From positions 6,448,001 to 6,512,000 of the forward strand of contig OZ361256.1 in assembly GCA_977018835.1 (NCBI GenBank): a DNA stretch of 64,000 bases, in the 5' to 3' direction. The stretch is from Minutocellus sp. GHC0000111 (lineage: Eukaryota). Position numbers and translations under genes: made by a program. Below the pieces are notes generated by a model. It saw nothing but the letters and a program-made list of their open reading frames with translations, was not told the DNA's origin and searched no databases. Positions 2,031 to 62,659 of the stretch are shown here, piece after piece. How positions within the stretch are numbered: position 1 is the stretch's first letter; the number at the start of each line of letters is the position of its first letter.

Positions 2031-2645
2031 ATGTTCGCTGCCGTCGCTCGTGTACCGGCGCCGGCGCTCCTATTGCTGGCGGCTTACGCCTCTTGCCTAA
2101 TCGCAAGTGCAGATGCATTTGTTCAGCCCACGTCGATAAATTTCAATCCCTCGGTCCTTCAAGCAAAGGACTCGCCCTCCGACGCAGACGTCGACGTCCA
2201 AGAAGATTTGCCTTTTTTGGCTTTACCAGGTGCAGGTGGTTCGTCCTTTGATCCACTAACCTCTGGGAATAGACTCGCGCCAGTGGCAGAAGGCAAAGAT
2301 TTGCAGAACAGCAAGATTGTCAACGATAAATTTGAGCTGCAGTATACATGTAAGATCTGTGATTACCGCAACAGTAATCGCGTTTCACGTATTGCCTATC
2401 GCAACGGCGTGGTAATCTGCGTCTGCAAGGGTTGCATGGCTAAGCATCTGATTGCTGACAACTTGGGCTGGCACAATTACATCGGTGGCTTTGAAGGAGA
2501 GCCAGATATTGAACAGTATCTTGCGTCCCGAGGCCGAGAAGATGACGTGAAAAGAGTTTCACCAGAGGTCTTTGAACTCGAACAGTTGCTCGAGCAATCG
2601 GGCGATGCCACGGGAAGCAAGAAGGAGGAAGAGGGAATGGAATGA
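2031..2645 (+). CDS. DNL-type zinc finger Hsp70 escort protein (Zim17/HEP-like), probably plastid-targeted
   Basis: YTCKIC...AYRNGVVICVCKGC..KHLIADNLGW zf-DNL; signal peptide ending ADA-FVQP resembles the diatom ASAFAP motif. Confidence 0.88.
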   Translation: MFAAVARVPAPALLLLAAYASCLIASADAFVQPTSINFNPSVLQAKDSPSDADVDVQEDLPFLALPGAGGSSFDPLTSGNRLAPVAEGKDLQNSKIVNDKFELQYTCKICDYRNSNRVSRIAYRNGVVICVCKGCMAKHLIADNLGWHNYIGGFEGEPDIEQYLASRGREDDVKRVSPEVFELEQLLEQSGDATGSKKEEEGME

Positions 2646-2825
2646 TGCTAGGGATACCTACTAAATAGCTAGCTAGTGGTACATGCTAAAAGGAGAGAAG
2701 AGAAAGCTAAGGAAACTTGAAACATATTGTAAATAGGACACTTTTGATTTTTACCATGGTACTTATTTTTATTTAGGTCCTGCTCCTTGGACATTCAATA
2801 CTCCACACAAACATCCATTCTCTAT

Positions 2826-4527
2826 TTAAATTTCAATCTTCTCGGCCAAAGCCTCAGGATCAGCCTCCGCCATGCTAATCATTTCCTTTCCACCAGTAGC
2901 GAAATGAGCCTCGATCGCAGCGAGAACTTCGATTGATCGCTGATCCCCAATAAGATTGATGGCAGAGCCCTTGCGTCCGAAACGTCCAGTTCGACCGATG
3001 CGGTGGAGGTAGGTCTCGAAGTCCGGATCGCCATCTTTCGTGACTGGGACGTCGTAATTTACCACCAAACAGACATTGTCAACGTCGACACCACGTGCCA
3101 AAACGTTGGTGGTAATCAAGACAGTACTCTCGCCCTTTCGGAAGGATTCCATGGTCTGATCTCGCACGGCGTTGTCAACTCCACCGTGCAAGAGAGAGCA
3201 GGTGTATCCTTCCGAAGTCAGTGTATTGTGTACGGCATCGGCATCATGCTTCGTACCGACAAAGACAATCGATTGGCCAATGGTAAGGAGCGAATAAATA
3301 TCGGAAAGGAAACCGAGCTTTCCACCGTCGTACTGCTGACAGTCGACCCAGATTTGCTTGATGATATCAAGGACCTGCAAAAACAAACGCGCCAAGCAAG
3401 AGAATAGGATCAAAATATTTGTGAGAATTGTTCAAAGTAGAGCAAAATACAACCGATTGCGGCTGTCTATGCAACGAATTACTTACCAGTGCCTCTGGAC
3501 CACGCTCAATAAGAATCTTATCGGGATTGTGCACCATCTTGGTCGCGAATTGAACGACTTCATCGGGGAATGTCGCCGAGAAGAACAGACTCTGACAGGT
3601 CTTGGGCATCTGCTTCTTAATCAGGAGGGAATTGGCCCGATGGCCCGACTCGGCAACCATGTTATCGGCCTCATCTAGGACAAAGACCTTGATGTTCTTG
3701 GTATTGAACGTCTTGCGCTTCATCCAGTCAACAATCTTACCGGGAGTGCCGACGATGAGATGAGCATCTACCCTCTTGCCCCTCTCCACCATTTCACCGG
3801 CCAGCGCGAGCTGGACCTTGAGGCCGGTCATGTGAGCTGCCATGGGCGCCACGGCCTTTTGGACGATCTGAACGGCCAGCTCCCGAGTGGGGGTAACGCA
3901 CAGGGCCTGAACGGTAGCGGGGGCATCAATCACGATGCGGTACAGCATGCCCAAAACGAAGGCCGCCGTCTTTCCCGAACCGGACTGGGCCTGGCCAATG
4001 ACATTGCGCGGTGGATCGGCCAGGATACGAGGCAGGGCCTCCTCCTGAATGGCCGACGGCCGTTCGAATCCCATCTCGAAGATGGCATCGAGCAGATGCT
4101 TCGGAAGGTTGAGCTCCTGGAAGGTCTTGGCCGACGACAGATGGGAGGACTGATCGGCCTGAATGACCTTGAGTCTATCATGCATGGTTTCCTTCTGGTG
4201 ATCCAGGGCAAGCTTTTGCAACCGCTTAGTCAGTTCCTCGGCATTCTTTCGCTTGGCCTCCTTCTTGGCGGCCTCCTCGGCCTCCACCTCCTTCTTGGCC
4301 TCTTCCTCCACCGCAGCTCGGACCTCGGCTGCCTTCTTTTCCTCATCTTCCGCACTCTTGGCAGGGGCTGCATCAGCGCCATCGGCCACCGCTGGCTTTG
4401 CCTCCTCCTCTACCTTCTTTTCGTCGGCAGAGGCGGCAGGCTTCGCGGTAGCGTCAGCAGCAGGGGCAGCAGCCGCCTCTTCGGCAGCTGCCGCCGGAGT
4501 GCTCTCAGCTTTGGCTTCCTCGCTCAT
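2826..4527 (-). CDS. DBP5: DEAD-box RNA helicase Dbp5/DDX19 (mRNA export); intron 3375-3486
   Basis: AQSGSGKT, PTRELA, DEADNM, SAT, YLHRIGRTGRFGRKG; GTAAGT..TTGCAG intron joins the two ORFs in frame. Confidence 0.92.
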
Positions 4528-7247: not shown

Positions 7248-7572
7248 GAGCGAAGAGCACTGGTCATGGTTGAACTGGCCGACAAGTCAAGTCAAGGTCG
7301 CGTCGGTCGGGCATCTGCGCTGCTGCTGCTCATCATCTGCTCACACGCCCTCGACTCACACCGTTATGCCAAGGGATGCCATCACTACTGTTGGTTATGC
7401 TCACACAGTCATACCAACTAGTTGGTACATTACATGAACATAAAAGAACCCGGAAATGCTCATCTTATCTGCCAAAATCTCAAAATCTGCCTGCAAAATA
7501 ATCTCCTCATTCCTGCTCCAGCACTTCCTCGCAAACTTCAAGGTAGGAGTATGTGCACGCGAAACACCAAGC

Positions 7573-8799
7573 ATGGCCTCACAGTCTGCCTCACATCCCA
7601 GGCAATGCCCCTGCAAGATCCTGCCGCAGTGCCTCTCATCCTTCACGGCGGCCGAGTTCGGTGACTTGCACTCTCTCAGCTCCAAGCCGGATGTTGCCCA
7701 CAAGGTGGGCCTGGGTGGGCTGACCCCCCTCCACTATGCTGCGCAAAATGATAAGGCATCTGCGACGGCATACCTTCTCGGGCTCGGTGCCGATGTCGAT
7801 GGACGGCCTCGGCTGGAGGACATGTCCATCAGCGTGCTGCATGGAACAGGCGATAGTAGCAGTGGTCGCGCCACAACAAAGTCAAAGGAGGAGGCATGGT
7901 GCGGTGCTACTCCGCTGCACCGGGCAGCATTTTCGGGTGCTGTTTCAGCGATGCAAGTTCTACTTGAATGGGGAAGCAGCGGCACCAGTCGAAGGCAGTG
8001 CGATGTGCTAGCCCAGGACACTAGCTTTGGAGATAGGATGACGCCACTTCACAAGGCTGCGGCTGGTGGACGTCCTCTTGCTGTTCAGCTGTTGGTAGAG
8101 ACGCTTCGGTCTCGCACTCGTCAGGGATGGGAAGGGGGAGATCTACTGCGACGCGGTCTGACGGTCCTGGATTCGCAGGGACGTACCCCTCTGGAAGTTG
8201 CCAGAGCAATCAACCCATTGGAGGAGGCCAAGAGCGTAAAGCGTTGGGACTCTGTTGCTGGAGGTACTCCTGACTGGGATCGTTGCATTACAATTCTCGA
8301 GAGTGCCGAGCAAGAGGCTGGTCTTTGCCTGGACGAGAACGACGATATTAGTGGCGCACAAAATACGAATCTACCAGCCTTACCAGCTCATTTACTGGAT
8401 ACGACGGGCTGTTTGGATTGCGAAGCTGATGATGGGACGTGCAAGACAGCTTCTTGGGAGGCAGCATTCCGAAGTGTTTTGGCTTCTTCAATTATGCAGG
8501 CATCAGCGCCGAGAAGTAATGAGACAAAAGAAGGAAATGCGAGTGGCCGCATTGGATTAGTAACAGTAGCACAGAAAGGAGAAGATATTCAAATGACCGC
8601 TGGGACAACAGCCACCGAATCAACACAACTATCTACTTCCACCAAAGTAACGGACACACCGACGAGGGTGGGGCATACCTGCAACGATTGTAACGAATTC
8701 TCCCTCACGCTATTCCGAGGAACCGGTGGAAAGCTTGTTTGCAAGAAATGCCGAGGGCGTAGCCGCCGAAAGAATGTGATTACAGTGGTCAAAATGTAA
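7573..8799 (+). CDS. Ankyrin-repeat protein with C-terminal CxxC..CxxC
   Basis: TPLHYAA, TPLHRAA, TPLHKAA, GRTPLEVA ankyrin motifs; start codon uncertain. Confidence 0.8.
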   Translation: MASQSASHPRQCPCKILPQCLSSFTAAEFGDLHSLSSKPDVAHKVGLGGLTPLHYAAQNDKASATAYLLGLGADVDGRPRLEDMSISVLHGTGDSSSGRATTKSKEEAWCGATPLHRAAFSGAVSAMQVLLEWGSSGTSRRQCDVLAQDTSFGDRMTPLHKAAAGGRPLAVQLLVETLRSRTRQGWEGGDLLRRGLTVLDSQGRTPLEVARAINPLEEAKSVKRWDSVAGGTPDWDRCITILESAEQEAGLCLDENDDISGAQNTNLPALPAHLLDTTGCLDCEADDGTCKTASWEAAFRSVLASSIMQASAPRSNETKEGNASGRIGLVTVAQKGEDIQMTAGTTATESTQLSTSTKVTDTPTRVGHTCNDCNEFSLTLFRGTGGKLVCKKCRGRSRRKNVITVVKM

Positions 8800-12375: not shown

Positions 12376-12829
12376 GATGGTTGAAGTGTTGTTATTACGA
12401 TATCGATTGACTGACTTCGAGTACTGATGATGATGATATTTGATGACTGATCACAGGGGGGGGGCTCGAGGAGAAAGGGGAAGACAAGGGAACGGAAGGG
12501 ACGGCGTCATGTATTTTTCTCTCCCCGTCTTTTTTTACTGTCGGGTTAATTGTTAATAAAATTGTAAAACCTGCCAGTAAAACGACAGCCAAAAAAGGTA
12601 ATTTGTGAGACAATTTGTAATAAATATGATTCTTTTGACGAAACCTTTGTCATTTATGATGCGTCTTTTCTTCGTCAGGTTAGAAAAACTGTCCGTCGTT
12701 CGTATAAGGGTCGGTAAATTAGTATGAATTTTAAAAACTGCCAGCAAAATCACAATATTTTTCACTAAGTGTTGAGACAATTATTGAAAATTATTGCTTT
12801 TTAATTAGTTCCTTTGCAAATTCCAGTGA

Positions 12830-14401
12830 CGAAGAGGGAGATCTGATCTTTCTTTGTTCAAGGCACCTTTGCATGTGCTGTCAAGGTGCGGCAAAGTGAA
12901 TGCTTGCGCACTGCATTGCATCGCTGCGTTTGAATCGCCAATTTGCATCTTTGCGTGTCGAATGGTGTCGTGTGTTGGTGTGCGAGCGCATTTCATCCCG
13001 ACGAACGATTGGCGAAGTCTCATCGAACAGGCAGGTGCTGCAACATTTATTTGGGCACAGCAAGTTCGGGTGCTGTTGCTGTTACGTATTTCGTCAGCCA
13101 TCATTTGATTGGCATCACACGGCATCGCACGGATTTCTCTGTTGTTACTGACTGATTTGATCGTTTGTGTAAGCAGCAATGGCGTTTTCTTGTCCCGGGC
13201 GAGACATCCAAACACATGCTCTTTCGATGCCTTTCTTTGGGCAGAATCCCATAACCAGCACATGGCTCACACCGCATTGTGACACCAATGGTTTCATTCC
13301 GTCGAGTGTCATCCTTACATGATTAGTTACAGTGCCACCGTTGACTCTCTCCCCTGGAACAACATGTCTGCATGTGTGTCAAATTTTGAGAACGAAATTC
13401 TGTGTTCGTCTCCTGAGTTGGGGATGCCTTGTGATGTGTTGCCATCGTTGATGGACTCTGCTTTGCGACACATTAGAATGTTTTACATGCTTCTCACTGA
13501 GTGAATTGAAACCATGTGTGTCAAATCACTGCTTGAAAAAGATAGTGATGTTTATTAATTTAGAGTGAATTGTGTTGACTTCTGTGCAACTTCAAGGGCA
13601 CCAACAGCAAAAGGGGGGTGGGGGTGCGGGGGAGGGGGTCGCGAAGCGACGGGCTCCCCCGCTTAGCATGAAATCGATTCAAATTGTTTGAAGTCATCGC
13701 ATGAACCGAAACATGAAAAAGACGGGCTCCCCCGCTTAGCATGGTGCGTCACAGTTTTGATCAACAACAAGTTGCCTCGAGTGGTAAGGTTTTGAAGTCA
13801 TCAGTGAGAACTGGAACACCGAACCGCCTCAACCAAATCACACGATTTTTGTCTCGAAACAAATCAAAATTGAATTTGTTCACTGACAAACACAAGTTTA
13901 CAAAATTCTGTCTGGTTAGGCAACAGAACTTAACGCCTTCTTGTTCCAGCATTTCTGGATCATCAATGAAATGCATGAGCTCATGGTGTTCAAGAACATC
14001 TCTAAAAAACTGCAGAGATTGAAAGCATGTCTTGGTCGCTTGACGACTTCAAGCTCTCTCAGCTAAAATGCCGCTGTGCGTCTTGTTACAGAGACAGGTA
14101 GACTCAATGCAAAACATTGCTTCTCTGACTGGAACGTGTCTCATAAAAGACTGACTCACAAGACGGACACTCACTTACAATTGTCTCTGTCATGGCCATT
14201 TATGTTGTTCAAACACACACACCTAAGACCGGAAATTACAGTGGTCTGACTCAATTGTCCTAATTGATATCCAGCAATGACCATGTCCTGCAGATGTTGC
14301 AGACTTGCAATGTTTTCATGATGTCTGCTTTCTCTCACAAACTCAGAAACACATCACGACATTGCCACCTGCGGTTGTGTGCAAACCCATGCAAGTCAAC
14401 T
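12830..14401. mobile_element. Degenerate, TpA-depleted repeat or transposon relic abutting the copia 3' LTR (possibly Helitron-like)
   Basis: AT-rich, with no credible ORF, but TA strongly replaced by TG/CA; GC-rich hairpin at 13626-13662; 23-bp direct repeat gacgggctcccccgcttagcatg at 13648-13670 and 13721-13743. Confidence 0.5.
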
Positions 14402-14597
14402 TGCTAAGAGGTCCTAAAGCTAAGCTAGATAGATATAGCTAGTAGAGGTTAATAGGACCTACGTAGATGAAAAATGGGCCATCGGAGATGTCGTTGTCCC
14501 ATGGATCAACGGTCAGGAGAGGGCACTGAGTCAGTGGTCTGATCACCGTACGTACCGTACGTATGTATACGTACGTACGCATCCCACGGTGTCAACA
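14402..14597 (-). repeat. 3' LTR (196 bp)
   Basis: 192/196 identical to 20434-20629; TG..CA termini. Confidence 0.96.
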
Positions 14598-14646
14598 CAC
14601 CCTCGCAGATCAATGACTAGTGCCATTGAATCTACATGTAGAGTCC

Positions 14647-16770
14647 TAATTGGAATCTACATGTAAGTAGACTGGTCGCATGTCGACATGGTAGCGGGCG
14701 GGATGGTGCTTTGTAAAATAATCGGCCAAATTTTGCGCTCCTTTCCGCCAGTGCACCTGGAGTTGTCGTTCGTTGCTCTGTGCGATCTTGGACCCAGCAG
14801 AGTCTCATGTCCATAGCCTTAGACCGTCTTTGCTTGACGGTTTTATTGGCGATTCCAGATGCTGTAGAGTTGTCAACGACGATAACAGTAGGGGGCTGCG
14901 GGTGACCCATTTCTTCTAGTGCTGCCCGGATTGGTGCTGCATCTTTCATGTTGATTGAAAAACAGTCCTCCCAACTCGGCTTCAGCGGCTGGCTGAGGAC
15001 GTTACATGCTTGATGACATTGGCATTGACGAGGATGGCTCCATTCATTGGTGGCATGGGATCACTTGAGTCAGGCTGGCGGTGCGAGTCCTTAGGTCGGG
15101 AGCTTAGGTAGAAGTGCCCTCCGAGCTTGCTTCTTGATTTCGGGGCTGACAAGTGGGAGGCGTCGCTGTGCACATGTGGGATCATGTCTGACTTGACGTG
15201 TCGAATGACTGCGTCGGGATGGGTTGCAAGGTAATCTAGAAGCTTCTTGGCATCTTGTCGAGTGCGCTTGGTAGCTTTGGATTGTTCCGCTGAGATGCTG
15301 TTGAGCGCCGGTAAAATTGTTGAATCAATTGCTCGACCATGGTGCAAGGAGCTGCCCACCACCTGTTGAATTTCGTTGATGCCTTTGGCGTCGAGTGGTG
15401 GTGAGTCGTCTTCCGGTTCTGGCAGCTGGGGTCCCGGGCCACACGTCGGACGATTCCATCGATATGGCGCATGCTCGGGCCGTGAGGGGCGGTCGTGTTG
15501 GAACTTGTGGCGCATCTCCTTGACGTAGTTAGGCATAGATAGATCCACCCATTTGGCCTCGTAGTTCCACTCGAGTTGAACACCACAATAAAGTCGGCCT
15601 TCCCAATCGGTAGTGATCTTGTGCTTGGAGTTGAGGGCCTGAATGAGATGGTCTGCATGCTCTTTCCCGACACACCTTACTCCAAAATCGTCAACGGTTA
15701 GGCAAAAGGTAATTGGGCGGGTTTTGTGCCTCCAAAGGCCGGCAGTGCGCTTGCAAGGGAAATAGCCATGGGGTTTGAGATGCTTGACAAGTTGATCGTA
15801 GGCTAGGCACCCTGCCTGGGGTAATCCATGCATTCCGCCATCGATTCTGACCAATGCTCGACCATTCTTTACTTTGTCGTGGAGGTCGTAGGCTTCCATG
15901 ACTTCGTCGGGGATGAGAGCTACTGGCGCCCACATCCATTCTGGCTCTGGCATGGTGCTATTGAGATAGAAGTCACTGACATCAATTCCCATGAAACGAG
16001 CGTTGTCTGTAGAGATGACGCTGTTGAAAAGTAACTTTGCAGTCAACATTTCAGCGGTCGGGGTCGAGACTGTACCAGGGTAATGAATTTTGTCGCCTCC
16101 TGCAGTCCATCGAACTCGATTGGGATTTGGTTTATGGGAGCGATAGTCGGCGACAATGCGGAGGCATGTGGCTTTTTCCCCCCGAGGCAGTTCGGACCAG
16201 TGGACGAAAGCCATTGTGTTGGAGGGAATGCTAGCACTGTTTCCAACTCGGCCGTCCGTTAGCCGTCCAATTTCATCGATGTTTGCTTGAATGAATTGGT
16301 CCCTCATGTTCGTTTTGAGGAGGTCGCGGCATTCAAGCATTGCACCAGTGTCGGGATGGACGACGGCGTTAGCAAAGTGTTGGAGGTTTGATAAAGGCGA
16401 GAAAGCTGCCATGTTGGCCACGTGGTGGGTGCTACGACGAGATGATGGCCGTGGGGGAGGGTTCCGATGTGGAATGCACCCTCGCTGACGGCATGATCGT
16501 CGTCGAGGTGGTTTGGCGGTCGATGGTTTGGACTTGCTTGTCGATTTTGCTGGAGCTGGTAATGTTGGAGTGGTATCGATCGTTGGAGACTTGCGTTTAC
16601 GTTGCCGACGGGAGGTGGGGGCATTGGAACTTTGATTGGATGTTACGACGGTTGCATCGTCGTCATGATTATCATCATCGTCGAAGTTGGGCTCGTCTAC
16701 TGCAGCCAAAGGATTGTAGTAGTTGGAAGAAACTGACGAGCGAGGTGGCGCGTTGGATCGACGTGATCGA
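14647..16770 (-). pseudogene. Copia reverse transcriptase + RNase H, frameshifted and hypermutated
   Basis: RVRWTAGGD, D.SDFYL, GGMHGLPQAG, TVDDFGV, HSDAS, SSAAEAELGGLF, VDNSTASGIAN, SKAMDMR, NLADYFTKHH. Confidence 0.93.
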
Positions 16771-18841
16771 CAGATTTAGTGGTGGCTGCATCATATGTGG
16801 AGGATTTTGCCACCCTCGGAGGTTGCTGGGGCTGAGGTAACGGAGCGTTGGGGTTGGAGACAAGGTGACGGCCTACTTCAGTCTCGTTCATCTCTTCTAC
16901 GTCGTCGTCCTCGTATTTGGTTTTGTAGTACTTATGCTTCTTGTCAAATGCAACGACTCTACCCTTGAAATTGCGATCTCCAAACACTTTGGCGACGATG
17001 GTACCGAGGCGGAATCGTTGGGAGTCGTCATCGTTCTCCAGCACCCTCGGAGCTGCGGTTGTCTGCATCGTCTCATCAGAGGCGGAGGTGGCAGATTCTG
17101 CTGGGGTCACGCTGTTGAAAATCTCGGAGAGCTTTTCTAAAGCTTGACGATGCTCGTCTCGAAGGGGAGCAAGGGGTGCCGCTGGATGTGGATTCTGTAG
17201 AGCGTGCAGGAGTTCATGAGCTGCGACTATTGCTGCATCGGCCGACGACGTTTTGGGTACCGGAATCATTTTGGGGAGCCAGACGAGTGTGTTACCAGTG
17301 CGTTCCGCCCGAGTTTCCTCAATCCAAACCTTGTAACACCGGTAGTGTTCCATGGCTGGACCGACATAGCACCCATCAACGCCATGCGGGGACCAAGAGC
17401 CGCGTGCCGAGGGCATCTCGTGAAAGATGACCTTGCATCCGAGGGGGCCGAGAGGCGTGCGATTGAAATCAAAGCCGCCATTGAGTTGCTCGTACGCTGA
17501 TAGTCGAGGGTTGACTCGGGATGCTCTCAGGAAATTGAGGGTCATTGCCGCCTGCTCCAGCAATTTATCCCACAAGATGAGGGGAAAGTCGGGATCGGCA
17601 CCACAGAGAATCGCAATGAAATGATTCTTAAAGGTTCGAATGGCTCGTTCGGCCGCATTTCGGCGGTGCGAGTGCGTTGGGGTCAATTGAAAATCTACAT
17701 CCTTTTCTTCCATGAACTCCTTCAGCTCTCGACTCACTTCATTATCCAATCGTTGCAATTTTGGGCGAAATCCTCGCTTGGAGAGGTATTCGAAAATAGT
17801 TTGGTACGCTCGGCGCATTTCCGTTCCCAATCGGCTTTTCATTGGTTCGGCCAAGATGCTGTTGGAGTCATAGTCATAGACGACCATTATGTACTGGTGG
17901 CCAGAAATAGACGATACCAAGAAACGGCCGGGCTGATCTGAGAAGATCTGGCCCGTTATGTCATGACAATCAGCAAAGACATAGTTGGTGCGCTGTTGGT
18001 GTTGTGCCGGGTGGAGATCCTGCTCGGTTTCGTCCACCCCAGGGAGAGATTTTGGCGTAGCCATCGACCGTTTGGGCTTGGTCGACCTGATGTTCTTGCG
18101 CTGCTGGTCTAAGTGACCTTTAATCATCGGCATCGACTGTGGCATGTGCTTACGTACAAGCTTTGATGTGAGGCCTGGCCAAGATCTATAAAATCCCGCA
18201 TCGATTGCTTTGCACCAGGTAGATAGCTGAGGACTGCCAGCGCACCAATGTAAAAAGGCTACACGTTCCGGAACCGTCTCCTGGGCAATTGCGGCGTTGG
18301 CAGCATGTTGGATGACGTTGGGGCCGGGGAGCGGCGACATGGTGGGCGAGCAATTAAGATCTACCATCCACAATTTCGTTGAGGGGTCTCGTTTACCTTG
18401 CAAAATGACGGCATTGTCCTTGGCGATGACTACCGAATCCTTATCGAAAGTGGCAATGCATCCATCGTCACACAGCTGCCCAATCGATAGGAGCGATGAT
18501 GCCATATTATTGAAAACATAGGCCTTGCTAGCCGATGGGGAAACCCCAGGGAGGCGAAGCGTGGCCTCGTGGGTGTTCGTCATTGTGCTATTATCCTGAA
18601 GGGTGACGCTGATAGGAATTGCTGTCTGTTGGACGTTGAAAATAGGGCCATCGTACGACAGGCATTGGGGCTTCTGGACAAAATGTCCCGTCGTTCCAGT
18701 ATCTGCTGCGAGGACGATTGGCTCTTGAGTTGGAGGTTTGCTTTTTGACGTAAGAAAAGCTAACAAAGGCGGGGAGGAGGTGGATTCAGACATGCTGTCA
18801 TCCTCTATTTTATGCTGATTAACATCCACCGTCCCTCCCGC
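16770..18841 (-). CDS. Copia protease + integrase + Tudor-like domain (pol 5' half)
   Basis: ADTGTTGHF protease, SLLSIGQLCDDGC, integrase DQPGRF / RLDNE / HRRNAAERAIRTFKNHF, RGSWSPHG..G.YVGP..EHYRC. Confidence 0.93.
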
Positions 18842-20130
18842 TCAGTTACGACGCGAGCTACCACCGCAAGGATTGTACTTGGTGGCGTTATCAACGTGGT
18901 TGGGCCCTTTGCAAGTGCATTCAAAGCTGGGGTGGTTGGACGAATAGCCGCACGTGTGGCAATGGTGGCCTCTGGGGAGGATCGACTGCAGTTCCCGCTT
19001 CTCCTGGCGGTTGAGGTTAGAGGTTAGGACCTTGGCCTGGGAAGTGGCCGGCGCCGTTCTGCTGGCCACCGCCGCGGCAGCCTCCACTGCCACCAGCATG
19101 GTTGCGTCCCTCACGCAGAACGCGGTTCTCGGCCTTGAGTGAAGCTATTTCTTGGCGAAGTTTGGCAATGGTGTCATCCTTCTCGTTGCTCTTTTTGGCG
19201 AGGTTCGCCATCATGGCTTGGTTGGTCTTGAGGGCTTCGGTGGCATCAGCCAAAAGGAGATCGGCTCGAGAAAGAAATGGATCGTCCGAGGCCGATGAGG
19301 CCAAATTCGCGCCATGACATCCTGCCGCTTCGGTGGTGGTGTTGGCCATCTTCTTATCATGCCAATCGCGGAAGTCCGACTGCATGTTGGCCCACGTGCG
19401 TTCGGCCTCCGGTCTGTCATCCCAGTCCTCGCATGCCTTCTTTGCCAATGAGAACCTGCGCACGGAGCGGTAGAACTTGGAGACCTTTTGCTTGTTGGTG
19501 AAGGGTTCGCCGGCCGTTTCAAACGCCTTGAAGACTTTGTTGAACATGGCGATGTGGGTGTCGATGGGTCCCCCGTCGTGCTGCTTCTCGAGCTGCTTCT
19601 CTAATTCCTCCTTCTGAGTCTCGTTGAATTTCAAGTAGCGATCGGTGATGCTGTCGATGATTTGGCGGATGGTGACTGGCTGGAAACCGAGCATGTCATC
19701 TTCGAGATGATTGATGTAGACGGAGTCGATCGAGTCGAGGAGATTCTTGAGCGCCGTGTTGACTTGCTCGTGCAAGTTGCAGTGGCCCTTTTCGATGCAA
19801 TGTCCCCGGATTGCACGATCGCGTTGGTCTAGATTGGCCACGGCGGGAATGGTGGGGCTGGGGCCAGGATTTGCCGGAGGCACATGTGGTCGGCCGTTAC
19901 TTTTGGTGGTGTGTTCGGCATCGCTGACGACGAGGCCCAAATGGCCAAGGTTGTGCTCGGTCATTGCACCCTGCTGGAATGCTGGCCGCCTCTTGTTGAA
20001 GTTCCTTGAGCGCTTTGGCAACACGCTCGCGTTGGGGAGGTTGTCCTGGGTCACTCACACGTGTGATTAACTTGGTGGGGAGAATCGGCGCTGCGCCGAG
20101 AGGTTGGCCAAAAACTGCGTCGGGATTCAT
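18842..20130 (-). pseudogene. Copia gag with two frameshifts (~19970 and 19014-19027)
   Basis: KELQQEAASIP..GHLGLVVSDAE, W......RTWAN....F, TTEAAG(C)HGAN, C-terminal knuckle HCHTCG....H.S..C..K...H...AT..N..GGS. Confidence 0.85.
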
Positions 20131-20433
20131 GCTGGTGTTTCAGTCAGCGAAGACAGGCAGCACGGCGGTGTTGCTGCGAGACGTGTGATCGACAGAGAGA
20201 AGGTTCGATCCAGAGAAGTGTGATCGATTGGATGGGTCGATCTGGTCAGGACTTTCGGGGAAGGGATTGGATCGTCGTTCCAATATTGTCGAAAGAAACG
20301 GTCGTTTTGGCCAATTGAAGATGTGTCCGGTTTTTCGTGCGTGACGAGTGAGAACCCAACCAAGACAAACCGGTGAGGTAGGTGCGAACCGAAATGGGGC
20401 GAGCACGGGTGGAAAAGATGTGTCACGTAGGTC

Positions 20434-20629
20434 TGCTAAGAGGTCCTAAAGCTAAGCTAGATAGATATAGCAAGTAGAGGTTAACAGGACCTACGTAGAT
20501 GAAAAATGGGCCATCGGAGATGTCGTTGTCCCATGGATCAACGGTCAGGAGAGGGCACTGAGTCAGTGGTCTGATCACCGTACGTACCGTACGTATGTAT
20601 ACGTACGTACGTATCCCACGGTATCAACA
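20434..20629 (-). repeat. 5' LTR (196 bp)
   Basis: Direct repeat of 14402-14597. Confidence 0.96.
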
Positions 20630-22019: not shown

Positions 22020-22847
22020 CTATACAATCTCGACGAACTTATCACCAACCTTTTCTACAATGCTTCTGTTGAGGATTGTAAAGTAGCTATTGAAAGAGTC
22101 CTTACCGAACTCCCACGCAGCAAGTGCCCGGTCCGCGTCTCTCGCTTCAATAGCTGCCCGAATTTGTTGGGTCGCGAAGTATCCTTCATTGACGTAGAAG
22201 CGCGATACAAGCATCTCCCTCGATGGGCCAGAGTAATTGGGAGATGTCAGCATTGCTGTCGCAAACAGAACCATTTTGAGCAATGAATCGACAATGGGGG
22301 AGGGCAATCGATCCTTGCCGGATCCAGGATCGACCAGCACCGCCGCTTCCGCCCATGCGGGCGATTCTGGTCCGGATTTGGCCGCCCGTTGCAGGACCTT
22401 CCCCAGCTTTTCGTATTCTTGCCGGCCCAGTTCGATGTTGAAGGCATACTTCGAATACGCCGGCTGGCGTTGCTTCAGAGACACATACGTGCAGGAGTTG
22501 CCCGTCGCCTCATTCTTCGTACAGGTTCCCCATACATTCCAGGTCGGGTCATCAGCCGGCAATTGCGCCAGATCCAGCTTCCTCGGCGGTATCTTGTTGG
22601 TCATGTACCAGTAATCTTCGGCAACCAACGCCTCCTTGTTCTTCTTGCGATCTCGTCTCTCGAAGGCATAGGAGGCATCATTGTGGCTATCATCATCTGT
22701 AGGCCTGAGCGAGACAATCGCACCCGTGGCAGATCCAATGATGGTCGACAAGGCCTGTCTACGTGTGCGGCCGGTGGTCACGTCTCCCAGAGAGAGGGAC
22801 GAGACCAATGTGGCCGCAGAGGCCAATATCACGACGTGCCGTATCAT
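22020..22847 (-). CDS. Hypothetical plastid/thylakoid-lumen-type protein
   Basis: Signal peptide followed by a twin-arginine RRQAL and a hydrophobic stretch; helical C-terminus. Confidence 0.6.
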   Translation of the reverse strand: MIRHVVILASAATLVSSLSLGDVTTGRTRRQALSTIIGSATGAIVSLRPTDDDSHNDASYAFERRDRKKNKEALVAEDYWYMTNKIPPRKLDLAQLPADDPTWNVWGTCTKNEATGNSCTYVSLKQRQPAYSKYAFNIELGRQEYEKLGKVLQRAAKSGPESPAWAEAAVLVDPGSGKDRLPSPIVDSLLKMVLFATAMLTSPNYSGPSREMLVSRFYVNEGYFATQQIRAAIEARDADRALAAWEFGKDSFNSYFTILNRSIVEKVGDKFVEIV

Positions 22848-23094
22848 TGGGTTGGCGCTAGCGCTTCAAGATCTGGCCGAAAAGATTGCTCTTCAATCTG
22901 AAAATGATCCGTCCGTCGCCCGGTAAAAAGCGGGAACAGCACGAGATGCAGAAATCGTGACGTTTCTTTACCCTCAAAAGTAGGCTACCTTTCTCATCAT
23001 GCCATGCGTGTCCGTCCATCCACTGAATTGAGCAAACTCCGGCAAATTGGTTGCAAATGCGGTAGGCGTTTATTCCAGCGGAGCCAACGCGACC

Positions 23095-26000
23095 ATGGAC
23101 GACCAGGAGGCACCGCCAGCGGTGCACGGTGGCGGAGATGGCACGCCGTCGTCTGCTGCTGCGGCACCGTTTCCGCCGGCGGAGAAGGCCCTCGTCGATA
23201 CGCACCAGGAGGTCGGCGCCACCTCACCAAGCACAGCTACAGAGAAGAAGAAGAATGTCCCCGCCACCAGCACCACTGCTCCCTTTGCAGCGACTAATGC
23301 GACTGCTACTATTGACCCGTCGGATTCCGACCCAGAGAACGTCGGCATGCCCATCGAGGGCGACGAGTTGGCCTTCGATGCGTCTGGATTCTCGGGAGGT
23401 GAGTGGGCATCTTTGCTTGTAGGGATCCCTACTTGCAGACTTGCAGGCGCAGTCTCAGTGTGTTTGGCCTAGCTAGCTCTGACTCGGTCTCGACTCGACT
23501 CGATCTCACCTCATTTCTTCCACTTACCCATTCACTCATTCCCACCGCAGACCAAGAAAAGCACAATCCCACCTCCTCTTCGTCGGTACCGCCGCCGCCG
23601 TCCCCTCCCCAGTCGGCTCTGAGCATAATGAGGAGGGAGCACATGATGGAAGAAGGGGAGGGGGAGGAATTCCACCTGTCCGAAAGTGTGGTCTCCGGCA
23701 CGACCGTCAGCGGACCCGACGAGGCCGACAGCGCCACGGCCCCTCACCCTCCCGCCGGCGGGGACGGTGGAGTCGGCGCGGCCTCGCCCGGGAGGCGCCA
23801 GCGGCAGAAGGAGCGCATCAGCGGCCAAGGCTCACCACCACCGCCGCCACCTCCAGGGGGACCGTCATCATCGTCATCGTCCCAACATCATCCGGCGGGA
23901 GCACCGAGCAGCAATCGTGCCCCGCTGATCCATTCCTCGTCGGCCGCTTCGGTCGTTACGACCAACTCGGCCGTGCTCGGTGCGTTGGGTGTGTTGGACC
24001 GCTCTAGCTCTCGTCACAAGCTACACAGCAAGGGCGGTGCCGGTGGGGCTGCCGCCGGTGCCGGAAGCGGCAGCGGAGGAGGTGGTGGGCCTGGCATTGA
24101 TCACTCGCATTCCGGCGGCGGTGGTGGGAGTGCAACGCCCGGCGAAAGGGGCGGGGCCGGGGGCAGCGGCAAGGCCCGGAGGTCCTCCCGGCAGGTTTTG
24201 GATCGGCCCCGGTCGTCGTCCTGGGCCAGCTTTGACGACTACGGTGGCTACAGCTCCGGCGAGAAGAGCAATTCCGGCGGTAATGTCGTGGCCAGAAAGA
24301 AGAAGGAGAAGAAGCAGGCCAAGGAACGGGAGCGGAAGGCCCAGGTCGTGGAGAGCTTCCACCAGCATTACGGGGCCAGCCACCCCAGCGGGACCGGTGC
24401 AAGCCGCCCGCCGTCGGCTCCTCTTCCGCGTGGTGGGGCGGCAGGTACGAATGCTGGACTTTCCCATGCCAGCACCGGCAACCGACCTCCCTCGGCACCT
24501 CCTGCGCGCCAGCAGTACCATCAGCACCATCAGCATCATCAACAGCAGCAGCAGCAGCAGCAGGCTCTGTACCGGCAAGGTGGTGCTGCTACGCTTGGGT
24601 TCGACCCAACGGATGATGCTGCCGGGAGACCGACACCTCCTCCGCCTCCGCTGTCCCCAACTCAAGGCCACGCAAGCGCTCCAGGTCCAGGTCAAGGATA
24701 TCCATTCCAGTCTCAAGGTCAACCTCAGCCTCTGCAGGGTTACCCCCAGCAGGGCCAATATTTTCATCCCGCCCTGCACCAACAGCAGCAGGCACTTGCA
24801 GGTAATCCTCCCGCCGGCATTCCTCCGACCCACCAGCATCTTCCCCAAGGCTACGCCATGCCACCTTATGGATATTACCCTCAAATGGCACCGTATTATC
24901 CGAACGAAACGCCAAGTCCGCCACCAGTTCCGTCGCAAAATCCTAGCCCGGCACCTGCTTCGTCGCATAATCCTAGCCCTGCACCAGCGTCGTCGCACAA
25001 TCCCTCCCCGAATCCTTCGGCCTACTCATCCGGTGGACCGCCAAGAAACCGCAGGAGATCGGAGGAGGGTAGGAGACGCTCCGAAGAAAGTCGTCGATTC
25101 AACGGCTCAAAGCGGGGCAGTCTGGAATACAGCGAAGATTGCGTCAGCAGCAGTGACGAGGATGATGAAGGCGACGAACGTAAGGTGCCCTCCAGACGAG
25201 CAAGGGCACCAGGCCGGACGAAGCAGACATCATCATCTTCCAACACAAAAAGAAGCGGCCGTCGCCATAGCAGTGGCATTGCCGCAGCTTCTAATGTTGG
25301 TCGTCTTTCCCAAGGCCATCCGATGATGCAGCAACAGCAAAGTGGCTTTCCTCCTCAAGGCTATCCCGCTCCTATCATGGGCTTTCCTCAACAATACCAG
25401 CAAAGGCCTCATGGTGAGCACATGGTGATGCCAGGTATTTTCTTTGATTCTCAGCAGCTGCAGCAACACCAGCAGCAACAGATCCTTGCGCAACATTACC
25501 TGCAGTATCAGCAGCGAAGAGCATCGTCCGCAATCTCTCAAGAGTCTGAATCTGCTCACGTGCAACAACCGTCATATGGGTATCAGAGCTATACTCCAAC
25601 GCCTCCACTGCAGAGCGAGGAGAAAGAGGAAGAAAAGCCGATTGGCGAGCAGGCGACTGCAGCGGCTCACTACAGGAACGAGGAGTATTTCGCTTCGAAT
25701 GGACACGTCCAAAGTTCTGAGGCGGCAGTGGGATTTGCTGGAGCGAAAAAGCGGACTTCTTCAGTTTCCTTCTCAACGATTGAAATACGAAGCTATGAGA
25801 GGGTCCTTGGAGACAACCTATCCTGCTCCCACGGCCCTGCTGTGTCCATTGGATGGCAATATGAGCCTGATCCCATCACAGTGCAGCTTGATGAATACGA
25901 GTACTACCGATCAGATGACCGGCTTGACGGCACAGCCCTCGTTCTCAGTCGCTCAGAGCGAGAAGATCTACTCAGAGAGCTTGGATGTTCGCGCTCTGCC

Positions 26001-50859: not shown

Positions 50860-51454
50860 TATACGGTGACTTGTTTGTTCGAGATAGACCAAAACCAGTG
50901 GGAAATTCAATTATAGCGCGGTTACAGGAGAAGAGAATTCTAGAATAGAGTGGTGCTTTAATGGAGGAATAAGCATTGGATACTGGCATGTGTATCCTAG
51001 CCACGCAAGCGAATGACCAGCCAACCGGCCAACACAAGATGTGCCGTTGCGTTTCAGGGGGAAGTTCAGACTGGTACCCCGATCCTATACTGATTAAGGG
51101 GATAAGGGGCTAAGGGGCAATCGAATACTACGTAGTAAACGGGAGATCCCCTGGAAGAAATCATAACCCTAATTCTTTTAGGGCTTCAAGAAATTTGAAT
51201 TGAACGGTTCGGCTGTCGCCATCGCTGAAGCAACGGGCACAACAAACGTGGGGTTAGTGCGTGGTGCGCGTATCTCACTATGTCAGTTTGTGAAGCCGTT
51301 TTGATCATCTCGTTTATCTTGTCTCTTCCAAATAAATAATTGAGTACAGTCGGTAAGCAGGTCGCTCAGCGTTGGGAGCTCGTTGCCTCTATTGACATAT
51401 TATTTCCGGTTGAAAGTAGCATATTCAGACATTGATCTTTCCCTACTTTCCAGC

Positions 51455-54001
51455 ATGCCTCAACCCCGTCGTCGAGCTTTGGCAGCTGCCTCGGGGGGAA
51501 GCTCCCGCCGACGTCCATCACCACCGTCTTTGTCGATGTCGTCGTCACACGAGTATACCACATCGCTCACGTCAAATTCTCCGCGTGGAAGTAGCGACAA
51601 GGGGCCGTCGTCGAGCACAAGCAGTAGCGATGGCAACAGCAGCAGCAGTGGCGATAATGAGAACCCACGCCGTAGCAAAAGTGTTCGAATCGCTTCAGAA
51701 GCTGTCATTATCACAGCAGCCGACAAGATATTATCACCAACGACAGCAGCAGCCGCAGGAGGAGGGCCGGTATCTGCCCTGCCACCCAGCGTATCCGAGA
51801 GCGATCTGTCGTCCGAGGATGGAGATGATCATCAAGATTCGATCGAGACATCGACCACCCCCACGGTCCACATTGCTACGCATCAACGCAGGGGGCGGAT
51901 CCAGTACACGACCGACACACACATGACATCGTCCAACAATGGTAGTAGCGACGAATCGTCACACTTCAACGAAAACGACGACGACGACGACCAATCCATG
52001 ACGTCCAACGCGACGGACCCACTGGTGACCACTCCCATCATCCGGCGGAGGAGGCGGATTGGCCGTCCCTTCACGGCAAGCTCTCCCATGGGTTGGAACG
52101 AGGAGTATCTAGCCTCACCGGTGTCGCCTACCAAGAAGTCCAAGACGGAGCCAATTCGAAGCAGCGCCAACATCAACAAGCAAGAAGAAGAAGATGATAT
52201 CGATACTAGTACGGAGGATGATGAGTTCCCTTTGATCGACCAAAAATGTACCAGTGAAGACGATACCATCGCCATGCCATCGTTGGGTGTGGATACACAA
52301 TCGAAAGCACCAGATATGCCGCTGTCGCCTCCACAAGAGCTTCGACGCCGGCGCCGTCGCCGTGGGAGGAAGATTGCAGGTGCCAGCACTACATGTAGCA
52401 GAAGAACAACTATGGCAGACGCCGAATATGAGAATAATGGCAGCGAAACAAAGAAGAACGACCACCAATTCATGTCCTTCTCGGCCTTCCGGATCAACTA
52501 CCTCATCGTTCACATTGCCATCATGCTGGCCGACGGACTTCAGGGGACCCACCTGTACGTCCTGTATGAAGGATACGGCTACTCCGTCGCATCGTTGTAC
52601 TGTCTGGGCTTTTTGACGGGTGCCGTCACGTCGCCCTTTATTGGTCCGTTCGTGGACAAGATTGGAAGGAAGAAGGCGGCCATGCTGTACTGCTCGCTGG
52701 AGATGTTCATCAATTGGTTGGAGCAGTTTCCGTACTTTTACGGTCTGATTGTGAGCCGTGTGATTGGCGGCATCACGACCAATCTGTTGTTTTCTGTCTT
52801 TGAGAGCTGGTTGGTCACCGAGCATCGCCGCCGGGGCTACGCCGAGGAGAAGCTGGAGACGATATTGCGCGACTCGGTGATTTTGAGCAACCTGGCGGCG
52901 ATTGCATCTGGCTTTTTGGCGGAGTTCTTGGCTGTGAAGTTTGGTCCTGTGGGGCCGTTTGAGGGCGCCGTGACGTGCACGGCGATCGCTCTGGTGCTGG
53001 TATCGACCATGTGGCGAGAGAACTACGGCAGCGATGTGCCGGGCGTGCAGAGCGTCCGTGGGTACATGTCGAGTGCGTTCGAGACGATAGTGACGGATAC
53101 GAACATCTCTCGCATTGGTTTGATTCAGGGTCTAACGGAAGGGTCGTTGCAGACGTTTGTGTTTCTGTGGTCTCCAGCGTTGGCTCGGTTTGCTGCCAAT
53201 GCTCCGTCGAATGTCCTTGGTCTGGATGGCAATGGTGAGCCGGCGTATGGTGTGATCTTTGGTGCATTCATGGCGTGTGGCGTCGCCGGTGGTCTGTCGG
53301 AGCCGTATGTGCGTCAAGTGGCAACCTACTTGGTCCGTGATCATGATCGGCGAGCTGGATTGCGTCGTCGTGATACCATCATTATTGATGGCGAAGGCGA
53401 GGTGAAGCCGGCCGCTGTGGAGTTTCTGGCGACGGGAGTGTATTTGGCTTGCGCAGGGTTGTTGATGGTGCCGTACTTGGTGCCAGCAGATGGCGAATAC
53501 TCGTTCAGTATATCTTTGTTGTCGTTTTTGGTGTATGAGTTCATGGTGGGTCTGTACATGCCCTGTGAAGGTGTGATTCGATCGATCTACATGCCAACGT
53601 CGTCTGTTTGCTCCGTGATGACGATGCTTCGAGTGATTGTGAACATCGCCGTGGCGTTGGGCGTAATCTCGACGAACTACGTGCCATTCACGACGGCATT
53701 TGCGGCAGTGTCGACGTTGATGATGATATCGGCGGGCATTCAGCTGTCGATGGTGGACAACAAGGAGTGGAGGAACTTTGTGAGGCGAATGAGTTCAATA
53801 CATGAACACACCTTCAATTCTTTTCATAGCTCCCATGTGATTGGCGATGGCGACATTCAAGCTACATTGAAAGAATTGAAGCAATTGATTCCAGCAGGGA
53901 AGGACAGTGACGATGTGGCCTCTTCAGCTCCACCAGGGACGAGAATGTCGCCCAACACCTCAATCAATTCAGATTTTGATGCCACACCGGTACCACCTTA
54001 A
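51455..54001 (+). CDS. MFSD5: MFSD5/MOT2-family MFS transporter (putative molybdate-anion transporter), copy A
   Basis: YLIVH...MLADGLQGTHLYVLY..YG, GGITTNLLFSVFESWLV.EH, EGS...FVFLWSP; long disordered N-terminus. Confidence 0.88.
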   Translation: MPQPRRRALAAASGGSSRRRPSPPSLSMSSSHEYTTSLTSNSPRGSSDKGPSSSTSSSDGNSSSSGDNENPRRSKSVRIASEAVIITAADKILSPTTAAAAGGGPVSALPPSVSESDLSSEDGDDHQDSIETSTTPTVHIATHQRRGRIQYTTDTHMTSSNNGSSDESSHFNENDDDDDQSMTSNATDPLVTTPIIRRRRRIGRPFTASSPMGWNEEYLASPVSPTKKSKTEPIRSSANINKQEEEDDIDTSTEDDEFPLIDQKCTSEDDTIAMPSLGVDTQSKAPDMPLSPPQELRRRRRRRGRKIAGASTTCSRRTTMADAEYENNGSETKKNDHQFMSFSAFRINYLIVHIAIMLADGLQGTHLYVLYEGYGYSVASLYCLGFLTGAVTSPFIGPFVDKIGRKKAAMLYCSLEMFINWLEQFPYFYGLIVSRVIGGITTNLLFSVFESWLVTEHRRRGYAEEKLETILRDSVILSNLAAIASGFLAEFLAVKFGPVGPFEGAVTCTAIALVLVSTMWRENYGSDVPGVQSVRGYMSSAFETIVTDTNISRIGLIQGLTEGSLQTFVFLWSPALARFAANAPSNVLGLDGNGEPAYGVIFGAFMACGVAGGLSEPYVRQVATYLVRDHDRRAGLRRRDTIIIDGEGEVKPAAVEFLATGVYLACAGLLMVPYLVPADGEYSFSISLLSFLVYEFMVGLYMPCEGVIRSIYMPTSSVCSVMTMLRVIVNIAVALGVISTNYVPFTTAFAAVSTLMMISAGIQLSMVDNKEWRNFVRRMSSIHEHTFNSFHSSHVIGDGDIQATLKELKQLIPAGKDSDDVASSAPPGTRMSPNTSINSDFDATPVPP

Positions 54002-62069: not shown

Positions 62070-62659
62070 TGTTGCAACTTGCTACGTAGCAGGAAGCAGG
62101 CAAATAGGTCGTCGTTGGTCCCTTGCTCACAATTGCCAAATCGGCATATGCTCTACCTAGGTACTCGAAAGGTCCGCGATGTGTTTCGACGGTTTGTGCC
62201 CTACGTCATCCGCATTGAAGGGCAAAGGTCAGGGGTCTCCCACATATTGCACGACGCCGCACTGGCTGCTGACATGATGAGAGAGCGAGATACCAGTTAA
62301 AGTCCTATCTAGATCTAGCTCTAAGAAGTCGATCCCTAGGAACCATATGCTACCGTTCTATTTTGTTTTGTCTATCTTTGTGGGATTCCTACGTAGCTAC
62401 ATGTAGGATTTTGTTCTTTGCTGCAATCCAAGAAGGCAAAATCAAAACCAGCAGCCAAAAAAAGGCAAAAAGGGAAGGGGGGGGACAGGCGGCGAGACAA
62501 AGGCCGAGGCCCTTATCTTTGTTGAATAATCGGGAGTGGATTCATTTGTTATGTTGCTGTAAGCCACCTTGAACAGAATGGAAACTTCAAAATACATAAA
62601 CATTGTATTTTGATTTGATTTGGTCGTGTGGAGTGGCGGGAATGAGGGTCGTGCACGAG

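Follow-up and report, generated by a model that had tools for sequence, protein, structure and literature searches.

A Ty1/copia retrotransposon family of the diatom Minutocellus sp. GHC0000111 is hypermutated: TpA steps of either DNA strand have changed A>G, by which TA becomes TG or CA and ancestral Tyr codons become His or Cys codons. We regard this mutation process itself as very nearly certain; neither an artefact nor the consensus state of the family nor decay in the direction of fungal RIP explains the pattern. From the sequence pattern, the cause is, on balance, probably a candidate TadA/ADAT-type adenine deaminase of the host, which would act on chromosomal transposon DNA after insertion. 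The window, i.e. the whole 64,000-nucleotide stretch analysed (assembly GCA_977018835.1, contig OZ361256.1, positions 6,448,001 to 6,512,000), holds one copy of the family.

A copia element depleted of RTAY

The element lies on the minus strand between a pair of LTRs (Table 1). The signature had been assigned to 12830..20629, of which 14402-20629 is indeed the copia element but 12830-14401 lies outside it. The pol order is copia-like, with relatives named as integrases matching 17000-18841 and RVT_2 matching downstream (E 1e-5, short of the curated cut-off); from their motifs, we take two further parts to be protease and RNase H. Among named sequences, integrase-domain proteins of Phaeodactylum tricornutum come closest (47-50%), and the family, a young one, counts 162 or more protein records. 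Its members often carry small indels; in the window copy, two of them break the gag reading frame, one near 19955 (a 4-nt insertion) and one near 19013 (a 7-nt duplication). The 4-nt duplications (Table 1) are not centred on TA, and an endonuclease-V-type origin was therefore considered and dropped.

Table 1 Features of the element and its surroundings (positions in the window)
Feature	Position	Strand	Remarks
Start of repeated block	12447..12749	.	RTAY retained, 4 to 2
Non-copia block, no family match	12750..14401	.	TA-poor, 3 RTAY to 99 R(TG/CA)Y
3' LTR (TG...CA), 196 bp	14402..14597	-	RTAY kept 9/11
RNase H end	14650..14946	-	severed by two 4-nt duplications (14951, 14987)
pol: linker, reverse transcriptase, RNase H start	14991..16769	-	RVT_2 match
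Three-allele example site	15442..15443	.	copies: His 10, Tyr 5, Cys 3
pol, protease-integrase part	16775..18829	-	C-terminal Tudor-like domain (PF21743)
gag	19017..20100	-	RTAY observed/expected 0.07
5' LTR (TG...CA)	20434..20629	-	RTAY kept 11/11

All 13 motifs in which the original prediction saw His or Cys in place of Tyr are present on the minus strand between 14748 and 19922, with CAY or TGY codons as claimed; in DMRLCW the Cys is a TGY codon as expected, but the Leu, for which P0395 has Phe, is by its codons a non-TA change. The Val-to-Ala and Leu-to-Pro changes that had also been noticed recur at RT column 182 (3 of 12 copies) and column 408 (3 of 5 copies), respectively. In the RT/RNaseH region, 17 columns hold Tyr in 80% or more of 117 outgroup proteins; eight of these are His or Cys in the window, one more is Trp, common to the whole family, and at control columns conserved as D, F, G, H, M, N or S, the window differs at 0 of 51. 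With 233 outgroup rows, His or Cys occupies nine of 23 conserved Tyr positions, and the conserved Tyr of the protease-integrase part are kept in 5/5 cases. In the window copy this part is partially mutated (RTAY observed/expected 0.42) and in some sister copies, e.g. P0385 and P0427, heavily so; in gag, the seven copies compared show mixtures of Tyr, His, and Cys.

The predicted loss of TpA from the element is only mild when plain TpA observed/expected is considered but strong for RTAY: the ratio of RTAY to R(TG/CA)Y is 19:203 inside vs 687:1669 in host DNA of the 64-kb window (p 8e-13). The LTRs are largely spared, most TA sites being kept in both; the two differ at four places, of which three are TA vs TG/CA transitions and one is a transversion at a TA. 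Because no target-site duplication was found around the pair (flanks CAACT and CTTGC), the LTRs may come from more than one insertion.

A>G at TpA dominates the family spectrum

The family spectrum was derived from 61 records (60 proteins and the window), which are gene calls within 90% clusters, so that several may derive from one insertion. Because it was read from proteins, silent changes are invisible; cells of the alignment close to a frameshift, gap or end were removed, and gag record P0393, 99.7% identical to the window's own gag record, was left out. The expected excess of TA>TG/CA among copies is borne out: of the 762 single-base changes inferred (a total that excludes 22 changes beyond single-step reach), 501 (66%) are A>G at TpA. 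Per opportunity, A>G occurs at 0.14 for TpA, 0.0043 for ApA, 0.0057 for CpA, and 0.0017 for GpA, i.e. the TpA rate is 25-80 times that of the other ApN steps, and ApA, 33 times below TpA, is not raised and is no higher than CpA. Transversions at TpA are in threefold excess (13/395 sites vs 27/2467 elsewhere, p 0.002) and number 13 vs 501 transitions.

On the edited strand, the rate falls from RTAY (325/1123, 0.29) through YTAY (128/1031, 0.12) and RTAR (47/1120, 0.04) to YTAR (1/293, 0.003), and every step of this ranking is significant with sites as units. Because Tyr codons after a pyrimidine are skewed in their products (68 Cys vs 12 His) and those after a purine are nearly even (117 Cys vs 135 His), the flanking bases must be read from a single strand. 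G at +2 gave no gain (0.23 vs 0.26-0.37). Four of the 61 records lack any TA change, and several other copies are only lightly hit.

TA is the ancestral state and the direction of change is opposite to that of RIP, as had been proposed. His and Cys are not interconvertible in one step, and in keeping with a Tyr ancestor rather than a family consensus of His or Cys, 28 of the 31 columns with both residues also hold Tyr copies. When polarity was taken from the outgroup only, His or Cys was found in 148/389 family cells at conserved Tyr vs 29/3024 outgroup cells, and 63/5506 family cells were changed at other conserved residues. Reverse changes amount to 23/345 cells, at least 21 of them from a single column in which the family, against His in the outgroup, has come close to fixing Tyr (21/26 copies). 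Some columns show a His or Cys majority.

Copies are hit on both strands and independently

Both DNA strands are mutated, as anticipated, at rates per opportunity of 291/1903 on the coding and 210/1664 on the template strand, and the two products coexist within single copies (TG and CA, 19 and 12 in P0427, 13 and 11 in the window); per-copy strand bias is borderline (p 0.065). Neighbouring changes lie on the same strand in 128/276 cases vs 141 expected, so that there are no strand runs, and changes do not cluster along copies (p 0.3-0.6) or form tracts. The copies were hit independently, the same ancestral Tyr changing to His or to Cys separately: the four-gamete share is 0.68 of 939 pairs vs 0.63 after shuffling, and identical-allele sharing is 0.587 vs 0.579 in 91 pairs. 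Mean r-squared between derived alleles is 0.103 vs 0.070 shuffled, an excess that we read as the difference in load between copies, possibly with some shared descent. Load is uneven between copies (statistic 161 vs 54 shuffled), and no link was found between TA load and other divergence (rho -0.09, n 30). Because both strands are equally hit at RTAY and the copies are mutated independently, we conclude that the process acts on chromosomal DNA rather than by transcript editing, in line with the original prediction.

Short-read contigs carry the alternative alleles

Short-read contigs, as distinct from raw reads, from four studies contain mixed alleles at these sites, which speaks against assembly error. 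At the three-allele site, both alternative letters occur (1224 and 977 of depth 1286); at 15830, the window's own letter makes up ~60% of the depth in runs X1 and X5; and at 15155, it is absent from the X5 contigs. These figures draw on 40 of 240 variant places and 12 of 100 indels in a first comparison and on six places in a second, in which contigs are short within the repeat. Of 18 listed transition places in the element, 11 are TA/TG/CA vs 20% expected (p 1.6e-4), a conservative figure given that 15621 was counted as non-TA though it is TA/TG. A 21-base pattern gave two chance matches with unlike flanks in JGI metagenomes, and the viral contigs searched gave no match.

Host DNA and the upstream block

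The one host gene compared keeps its Tyr codons as predicted: 12/12 conserved Tyr are retained, six of them in an RTAY setting, in an alignment from which P0146 and P0148 (97-99% identical) were left out. Restriction to transposons holds within the 64 kb for the RTAY ratios and this one host gene, but a GC-rich host stretch (22881-24380) is equally RTAY-poor, with 2 RTAY to 44 R(TG/CA)Y.

The left part of the block upstream of the element is repeated, and its left edge is spared. Its 13100-14400 part is RTAY-depleted, stands at near single-copy depth, and has at least one diverged relative. Pfam searches with 12 frames of the block gave nothing under E 0.01, comparison with the representatives gave two matches, one of them the block itself, and the Atlas gave only scores of 0.79 and 0.81.

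Candidate mechanism and alternatives

In the mechanism we favour, a candidate deaminase would repeatedly convert adenine to hypoxanthine in TpA of integrated copies; hypoxanthine would pair with C at replication, fixing G, and the excision of a minority of hypoxanthines could give the transversion excess at TpA. The TG or CA product would destroy the target, such that Tyr could become His or Cys but never proceed to Arg, and no stop codons could arise. Targeting might follow silenced chromatin, to which LTRs and domain edges would be less exposed, and single hits would accumulate across many cell divisions. A role in defence, as well as the responsible enzyme, is what we infer from the pattern; if a defence, it would be leaky, given the size that the family retains and the low load of several copies. 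Stramenopile deaminase-SAM-Tudor proteins (Iyer et al. 2011, PMC3239186) and diatom DNMT4 are no more than leads to the responsible factors.

Known TadA editors require single-stranded DNA, a need that sits uneasily with the absence of strand runs. Engineered TadA editors and natural TadA/ADAT2-ADAT3 resemble the process described here in making A>G changes on DNA at pyrimidine-flanked sites, the editors preferring YAY > YAR or YAC (PMC12528748). Unlike it, these editors are engineered and Cas9-guided and act on CpA as well, a step hardly raised in the family, whereas the diatom pattern is confined to TpA and favours a purine at the second base upstream, a strong effect that lacks a citable TadA counterpart. 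A review table gives 5'ACG as the TadA/ADAT2 motif, yet G at +2 gives no gain in the family. A precedent with the same proposed chemistry comes from Bigelowiella natans, as described in the accessible part of a preprint (Mettrop et al., bioRxiv 10.64898/2026.01.13.699255).

Alternatively, a writer (a methyltransferase or other enzyme) might mark the adenine of RTAY-like sites in silenced DNA, the marked base then deaminating or miscoding to G. In its favour, the preferred RTAY target is palindromic, isolated hits that form no strand runs would fit a mark that decays later, and diatoms encode RID-related DNMT4 proteins of undefined function, some with chromodomains (PMC9998398, accessible part). 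Still, we consider this route unlikely: a symmetric writer of a palindrome predicts otherwise than a context read on one strand (YTAY above RTAR), and DNMT4 proteins are cytosine methyltransferases that, in the part of that study accessible, were not found in the other species surveyed, so that they would not cover B. natans.

Somewhat more doubtful is the resynthesis of patches in silenced transposon DNA by an error-prone polymerase misinserting opposite T. The WA motif is where polymerase eta acts as an A-T mutator (PMC11507097, accessible part), and the frequent indels of the family are such as patch repair might leave. However, WA comprises both TA and AA, and deamination is supported as the better fit than error-prone synthesis because ApA is not raised; nor are there same-strand runs or tracts, and TpA transversions are few against transitions.

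Editing during the retrotransposition cycle, on element RNA or single-stranded cDNA in the manner of ADAR or APOBEC3, we hold to be improbable. It would suit a retroelement target, a strongly uneven load unrelated to other divergence, as from single bursts at birth, and the sparing of LTRs, although this last argument is weakened because the LTR pair may not share one insertion. On the other hand, TG and CA are near equal within the same copy, edits are neither one-stranded nor clustered, the LTRs differ from each other at TA sites, the adjoining non-copia block shows the same RTAY loss, and the B. natans process was, according to the accessible preprint text, observed directly on chromosomal DNA. 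Finally, the absence of any special mutator (a His/Cys state of the family's own, RIP-direction decay, GC-biased conversion, or assembly error) might account for the His- or Cys-majority columns, the near-fixed His>Tyr difference, and the letter missing at 15155, but deserves almost no credence given the Tyr copies at 28/31 columns, the rarity of reverse changes outside one column, a hundredfold context range at TpA that GC-biased conversion would not pick out, and the mixed alleles in contigs of four studies.

Relation to known systems

Fungal RIP is premeiotic, homology-triggered, and RID-dependent. Like RIP, the process in the diatom makes dinucleotide-specific transitions that build up in each repeat copy separately, hit both strands, and leave genes intact; unlike the C>T changes of ascomycete RIP, which create TpA and stops, its A>G changes destroy TpA and cannot create stops.

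No earlier description in diatoms was found in the literature searched, which included few subscription papers, but the same signature has been published for B. natans, in a preprint whose accessible text mentions no diatom or stramenopile. According to that text, NCLDV and virophage DNA integrated in the genome is hypermutated at TpA, with new mutations arising some 1000-fold above background and in some lines only; its authors propose an ADAT2-like deaminase and suggest transposons as further targets (10.64898/2026.01.13.699255). In both systems, A>G and T>C changes at TpA hit either strand of chromosomal DNA and are confined to foreign or mobile sequence (in the diatom, within the 64 kb compared), and both are uneven, between lines in B. 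natans and between copies in the diatom family. They differ in host (a rhizarian vs a diatom), in target and measurement (de novo changes in a virophage region and in a giant-virus insert present as a single copy vs standing variation in a high-copy LTR family), and in that the flanking-base ranking is absent from the accessible B. natans main text. The accessible parts of Maumus et al. 2009 (PMC2806351) describe diatom CoDi Ty1/copia elements with the same TG...CA LTRs, gag before pol, and copia order, without mention of TpA, hypermutation or dinucleotides; likewise, that of PMC9998398 does not mention TpA, 10.1101/2025.10.24.684338 does not mention a diatom TpA process, and PMC10722557 holds nothing relevant. 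In three Phaeodactylum and three Fragilaria relatives, the conserved integrase Tyr are kept 5/5 each, which is a weak test.

Natural targeted chromosomal A-to-G editing has so far rested on one preprint and one alga. The diatom family adds a second, distant lineage in which many copies serve as natural replicates, yielding a sequence fingerprint of the enzyme and showing the hits on either strand to be isolated and dispersed; culturable diatoms offer a direct assay. If a deaminase is responsible, it would be a native adenine editor working in a double-strand context, relevant to genome defence and to base-editing tools. We tentatively suggest, as a possibility that falls short of probable, that a DNA adenine base editor of the TadA/ADAT type occurs naturally in diatoms, steered to silenced mobile DNA and acting on RTAY of double-stranded chromosomes one hit at a time, which might be common to Rhizaria and represent an old SAR-wide defence, a mirror of fungal RIP. 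The TpA process distorts diatom transposon dating, GC content, and repeat gene calls; because it removes stop codons, dead elements resemble open, His/Cys-rich genes.

Conserved tyrosines of the element have become histidine or cysteine

All 13 sequence motifs on which the original prediction drew were found in the window, and its proposal that Tyr codons of the Ty1/copia element had become His (CAY) or Cys (TGY) was borne out: 8 of 17 conserved Tyr in RT/RNaseH are His or Cys, and among control residues (conserved D, F, G, H, M, N, and S) 0/51 columns are changed. Host genes, said to keep their Tyr, did so at 12/12 conserved positions in one host gene. The plain TpA content of the element is just mildly low; the loss is concentrated in RTAY (R, purine; Y, pyrimidine; read on the edited-A strand), whose observed/expected ratio is lowest in gag (0.07) and RT (0.08), followed by the upstream block (0.18) and integrase (0.42), and reaches 0.86 in host DNA. 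RTAY is as scarce as in the element in a GC-rich, low-complexity host stretch (22.9–24.4 kb). An ankyrin-repeat frame with few Tyr could reflect composition or mild hypermutation. Because the few differences between inverted MFS_5 transporter duplicates include no TA changes and their RTAY is normal, this recent host-gene duplicate was not hit.

Changes among copies run from TpA and follow a sequence context

We aligned the window with 60 sister proteins (49 of 162 integrase-cluster records plus 12 RT records, the members listed, minus one self record), from 32 contigs distinguishable by size, and 233 outgroup proteins over 1277 columns. Records are gene calls within 90% clusters, so one insertion may account for several; 33/886 record pairs are near-identical, mostly in TA-poor overlaps of 100 residues. 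Both His and Cys occur in 31 columns, and because they lie two steps apart and Tyr is also present in 28 of these, Tyr is the hub and ancestral state, rather than the family consensus carrying His/Cys natively. Arg occurs in a single column, itself an Arg column. Polarized by the outgroup only, 148/389 conserved-Tyr cells are now His/Cys in the family vs 29/3024 in the outgroup; the reverse direction accounts for 23/345 cells, and a single column in which Tyr is the family state contributes almost all of them. The expected excess of TA to TG/CA was also found, with 501/762 codon-mapped changes being A>G at TpA in a spectrum that derives from proteins and has silent changes outside its view. 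Per opportunity, the A>G rate was 0.14 at TpA, 0.0043 at ApA, 0.0057 at CpA, and 0.0017 at GpA; CpG decay reached 0.009 and most kinds of transversion 0.0006. Transversions at TpA were threefold those at other A sites. Seven gag records hold like mixtures.

The rate depended on flanking bases (RTAY 0.29, YTAY 0.12, RTAR 0.04, YTAR 0.003), and with sites as units all context steps hold (p 5e-8, 4e-7, and 0.006), bases beyond this core adding little. Tyr codons after a purine were changed in 252/415 cells (Cys 117, His 135) and those after a pyrimidine in 80/455 (Cys 68, His 12). This dependence of the Cys/His split on the preceding base shows that context recognition involves a single strand, and the preference explains the prominence of Tyr among changed residues.

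Hits are scattered over copies and are present in short-read contigs

Derived alleles were not distributed in a tree-like manner (four-gamete share 0.68 vs 0.63 shuffled; allele sharing 0.587 vs 0.579). Their r-squared was raised (0.103 vs 0.070 shuffled), which we put down to load differences between copies: load per record ranged from 0 to 0.40, varied beyond chance, and did not correlate with other divergence among records. Single copies contain both products (TG and CA), and no same-strand runs or tracts of hits were found along copies. Three of the four differences between the LTRs are TA transitions; given that there is no target-site duplication at the element flanks, the pair may come from separate insertions. 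The LTRs were largely spared, with RTAY hit at 2/22 sites vs 14/23 internal sites (p 4e-4); the LTR end may be protein-bound or lie beyond the silenced domain. The picture is one of scattered single events that accumulate on resident DNA, with the locus determining how fast, and DNA-level, both-strand, transposon-focused TpA hypermutation, as originally predicted, is supported.

An artefact as the origin of the changes was ruled out by short-read contigs of four studies, in which alleles are mixed and most differences are transitions (149/174 places in run X1). X1 is possibly the sample from which the window itself came; X5, X6, and X10 come from other studies. This evidence consists of assembled contigs rather than raw reads, with 40 of 240 places listed. 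At 15830, the His letter of the window accounts for ~60% of the depth in both X1 and X5; at 15442–15443, X5 has both alternative letters, in agreement with the mixture among proteins (His 10, Tyr 5, Cys 3).

A host deaminase is the best candidate mechanism

We lean toward a host deaminase of the TadA/ADAT type, a candidate class of enzyme that would attack adenines within silenced mobile DNA on the chromosome. TadA-based editors also hit CpA and require single-stranded DNA, both of which count against this reading. In its favour, such editors prefer YAY over YAR (PMC12528748). A review gives ACG as the natural motif (PMC10661471), which again counts against a deaminase of this type; G at +2 brought no gain in mutation rate among family sites. 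That adenine is marked first and then decays seems unlikely. Polymerase eta-like synthesis is somewhat less likely again, as ApA is not raised. Editing within the retro cycle we regard as improbable, chemistry outside these mechanisms takes up a slim remainder, and the absence of any special process is scarcely credible. Because conserved residues are damaged and host genes are without hits, the hypermutation has a putative role in defence.

Relation to known systems

The process works as the mirror image of fungal RIP, yet is distinct from it. The accessible text of a preprint by Mettrop et al. (bioRxiv 10.64898/2026.01.13.699255) reports, for viral inserts in Bigelowiella natans, 231 mutations of this kind, with A>G and T>C all at TpA, proposes an ADAT2-like enzyme, suggests transposons as targets, and does not mention diatoms. 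The original prediction was not aware of a description in diatoms; none was found in the literature searched, which included three diatom papers and had most subscription journals outside its scope. The same kind of process is already in this preprint. What is new here is the diatom host and the retrotransposon family, and the locus contributes many copies side by side, from which direction, context rank, independence, and the lack of strand runs can be read. Because 4/233 unrelated outgroup elements have at least two such changes, their sequences suggest that the process may be active in other organisms too; these copia elements (P0029, P0344, P0330, and P0292, from other assemblies, about 45–48% identity) carry 2–4 His/Cys at conserved Tyr, P0029 at 4/18.

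Host DNA and anatomy of the element

The window is eukaryotic DNA with many genes per kb, and because the named best relatives of its thioredoxin reductase are all diatom (Odontella and Helicotheca, 75–77%), the host is a diatom; runs with the stretch include some labelled sponge metagenome and marine metagenome. The element has gag followed by pol, with integrase ahead of reverse transcriptase, and among named proteins those nearest to it come from Phaeodactylum (integrase-domain proteins, 47–50%). Near-identical proteins form four clusters (113, 14, 30, and 5 members), and summed contig depth in X5, which is not a copy number, is ~2,300–4,300 vs ~10 in the flanks. The Tudor domain of the integrase is, judging from its profile match, a possible chromatin-reading targeting module. 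Because contigs diverge at both edges of the 12447–20629 block and the element is without a target-site duplication, the whole block may stand in place of former host sequence or be a product of recombination.

Features of the element and the surrounding host DNA (window positions)
Feature	Position	Strand	Description
LTR element	14402-20629	minus	196-bp LTRs, 98% alike
Separate block	12447-14401		distinct from LTR element
Block edges	12446; 20630		contigs of other haplotypes/strains run on into sequence absent from window
LTR end	14545-14597; 20577-20629		crowded GTAC/TACG-type palindromes (best target context), nearly intact
Integrase C-terminal end	16870-17005	minus	PTM/DIR17-like Tudor domain (PF21743, E 5e-11)
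4-nt insertions	14951; 14987; 19955; 20194; 20356; 20376		window copy vs sisters
7-nt insertion	19013		window copy vs sisters
3-nt insertion	18797		window copy vs sisters
Presence/absence variation	13289-14004		716 nt, inside TA-poor block; skipped by contigs of X1 and X6
Presence/absence variation	22229-23053		825 nt, host DNA; skipped by contigs of X1 and X5
Ankyrin-repeat frame	7444-8799		2 Tyr, 10 His, 16 Cys in 452 codons; RTAY low at 7.0-8.2 kb
Long host frame	from 23403		37 Tyr retained in 1049 codons
MFS_5 transporter gene	51344-54001; 59703-62081		inverted duplicate; 1333 nt at 99.7%
Odd dinucleotide values	55001-56500		probably unresolved letters or low complexity

The number of insertions in the window copy is high given its ~96% identity to sisters; five of the six 4-nt insertions are perfect tandem duplications, and TA is not at their centre. 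Frameshifts are also present in many sister copies.
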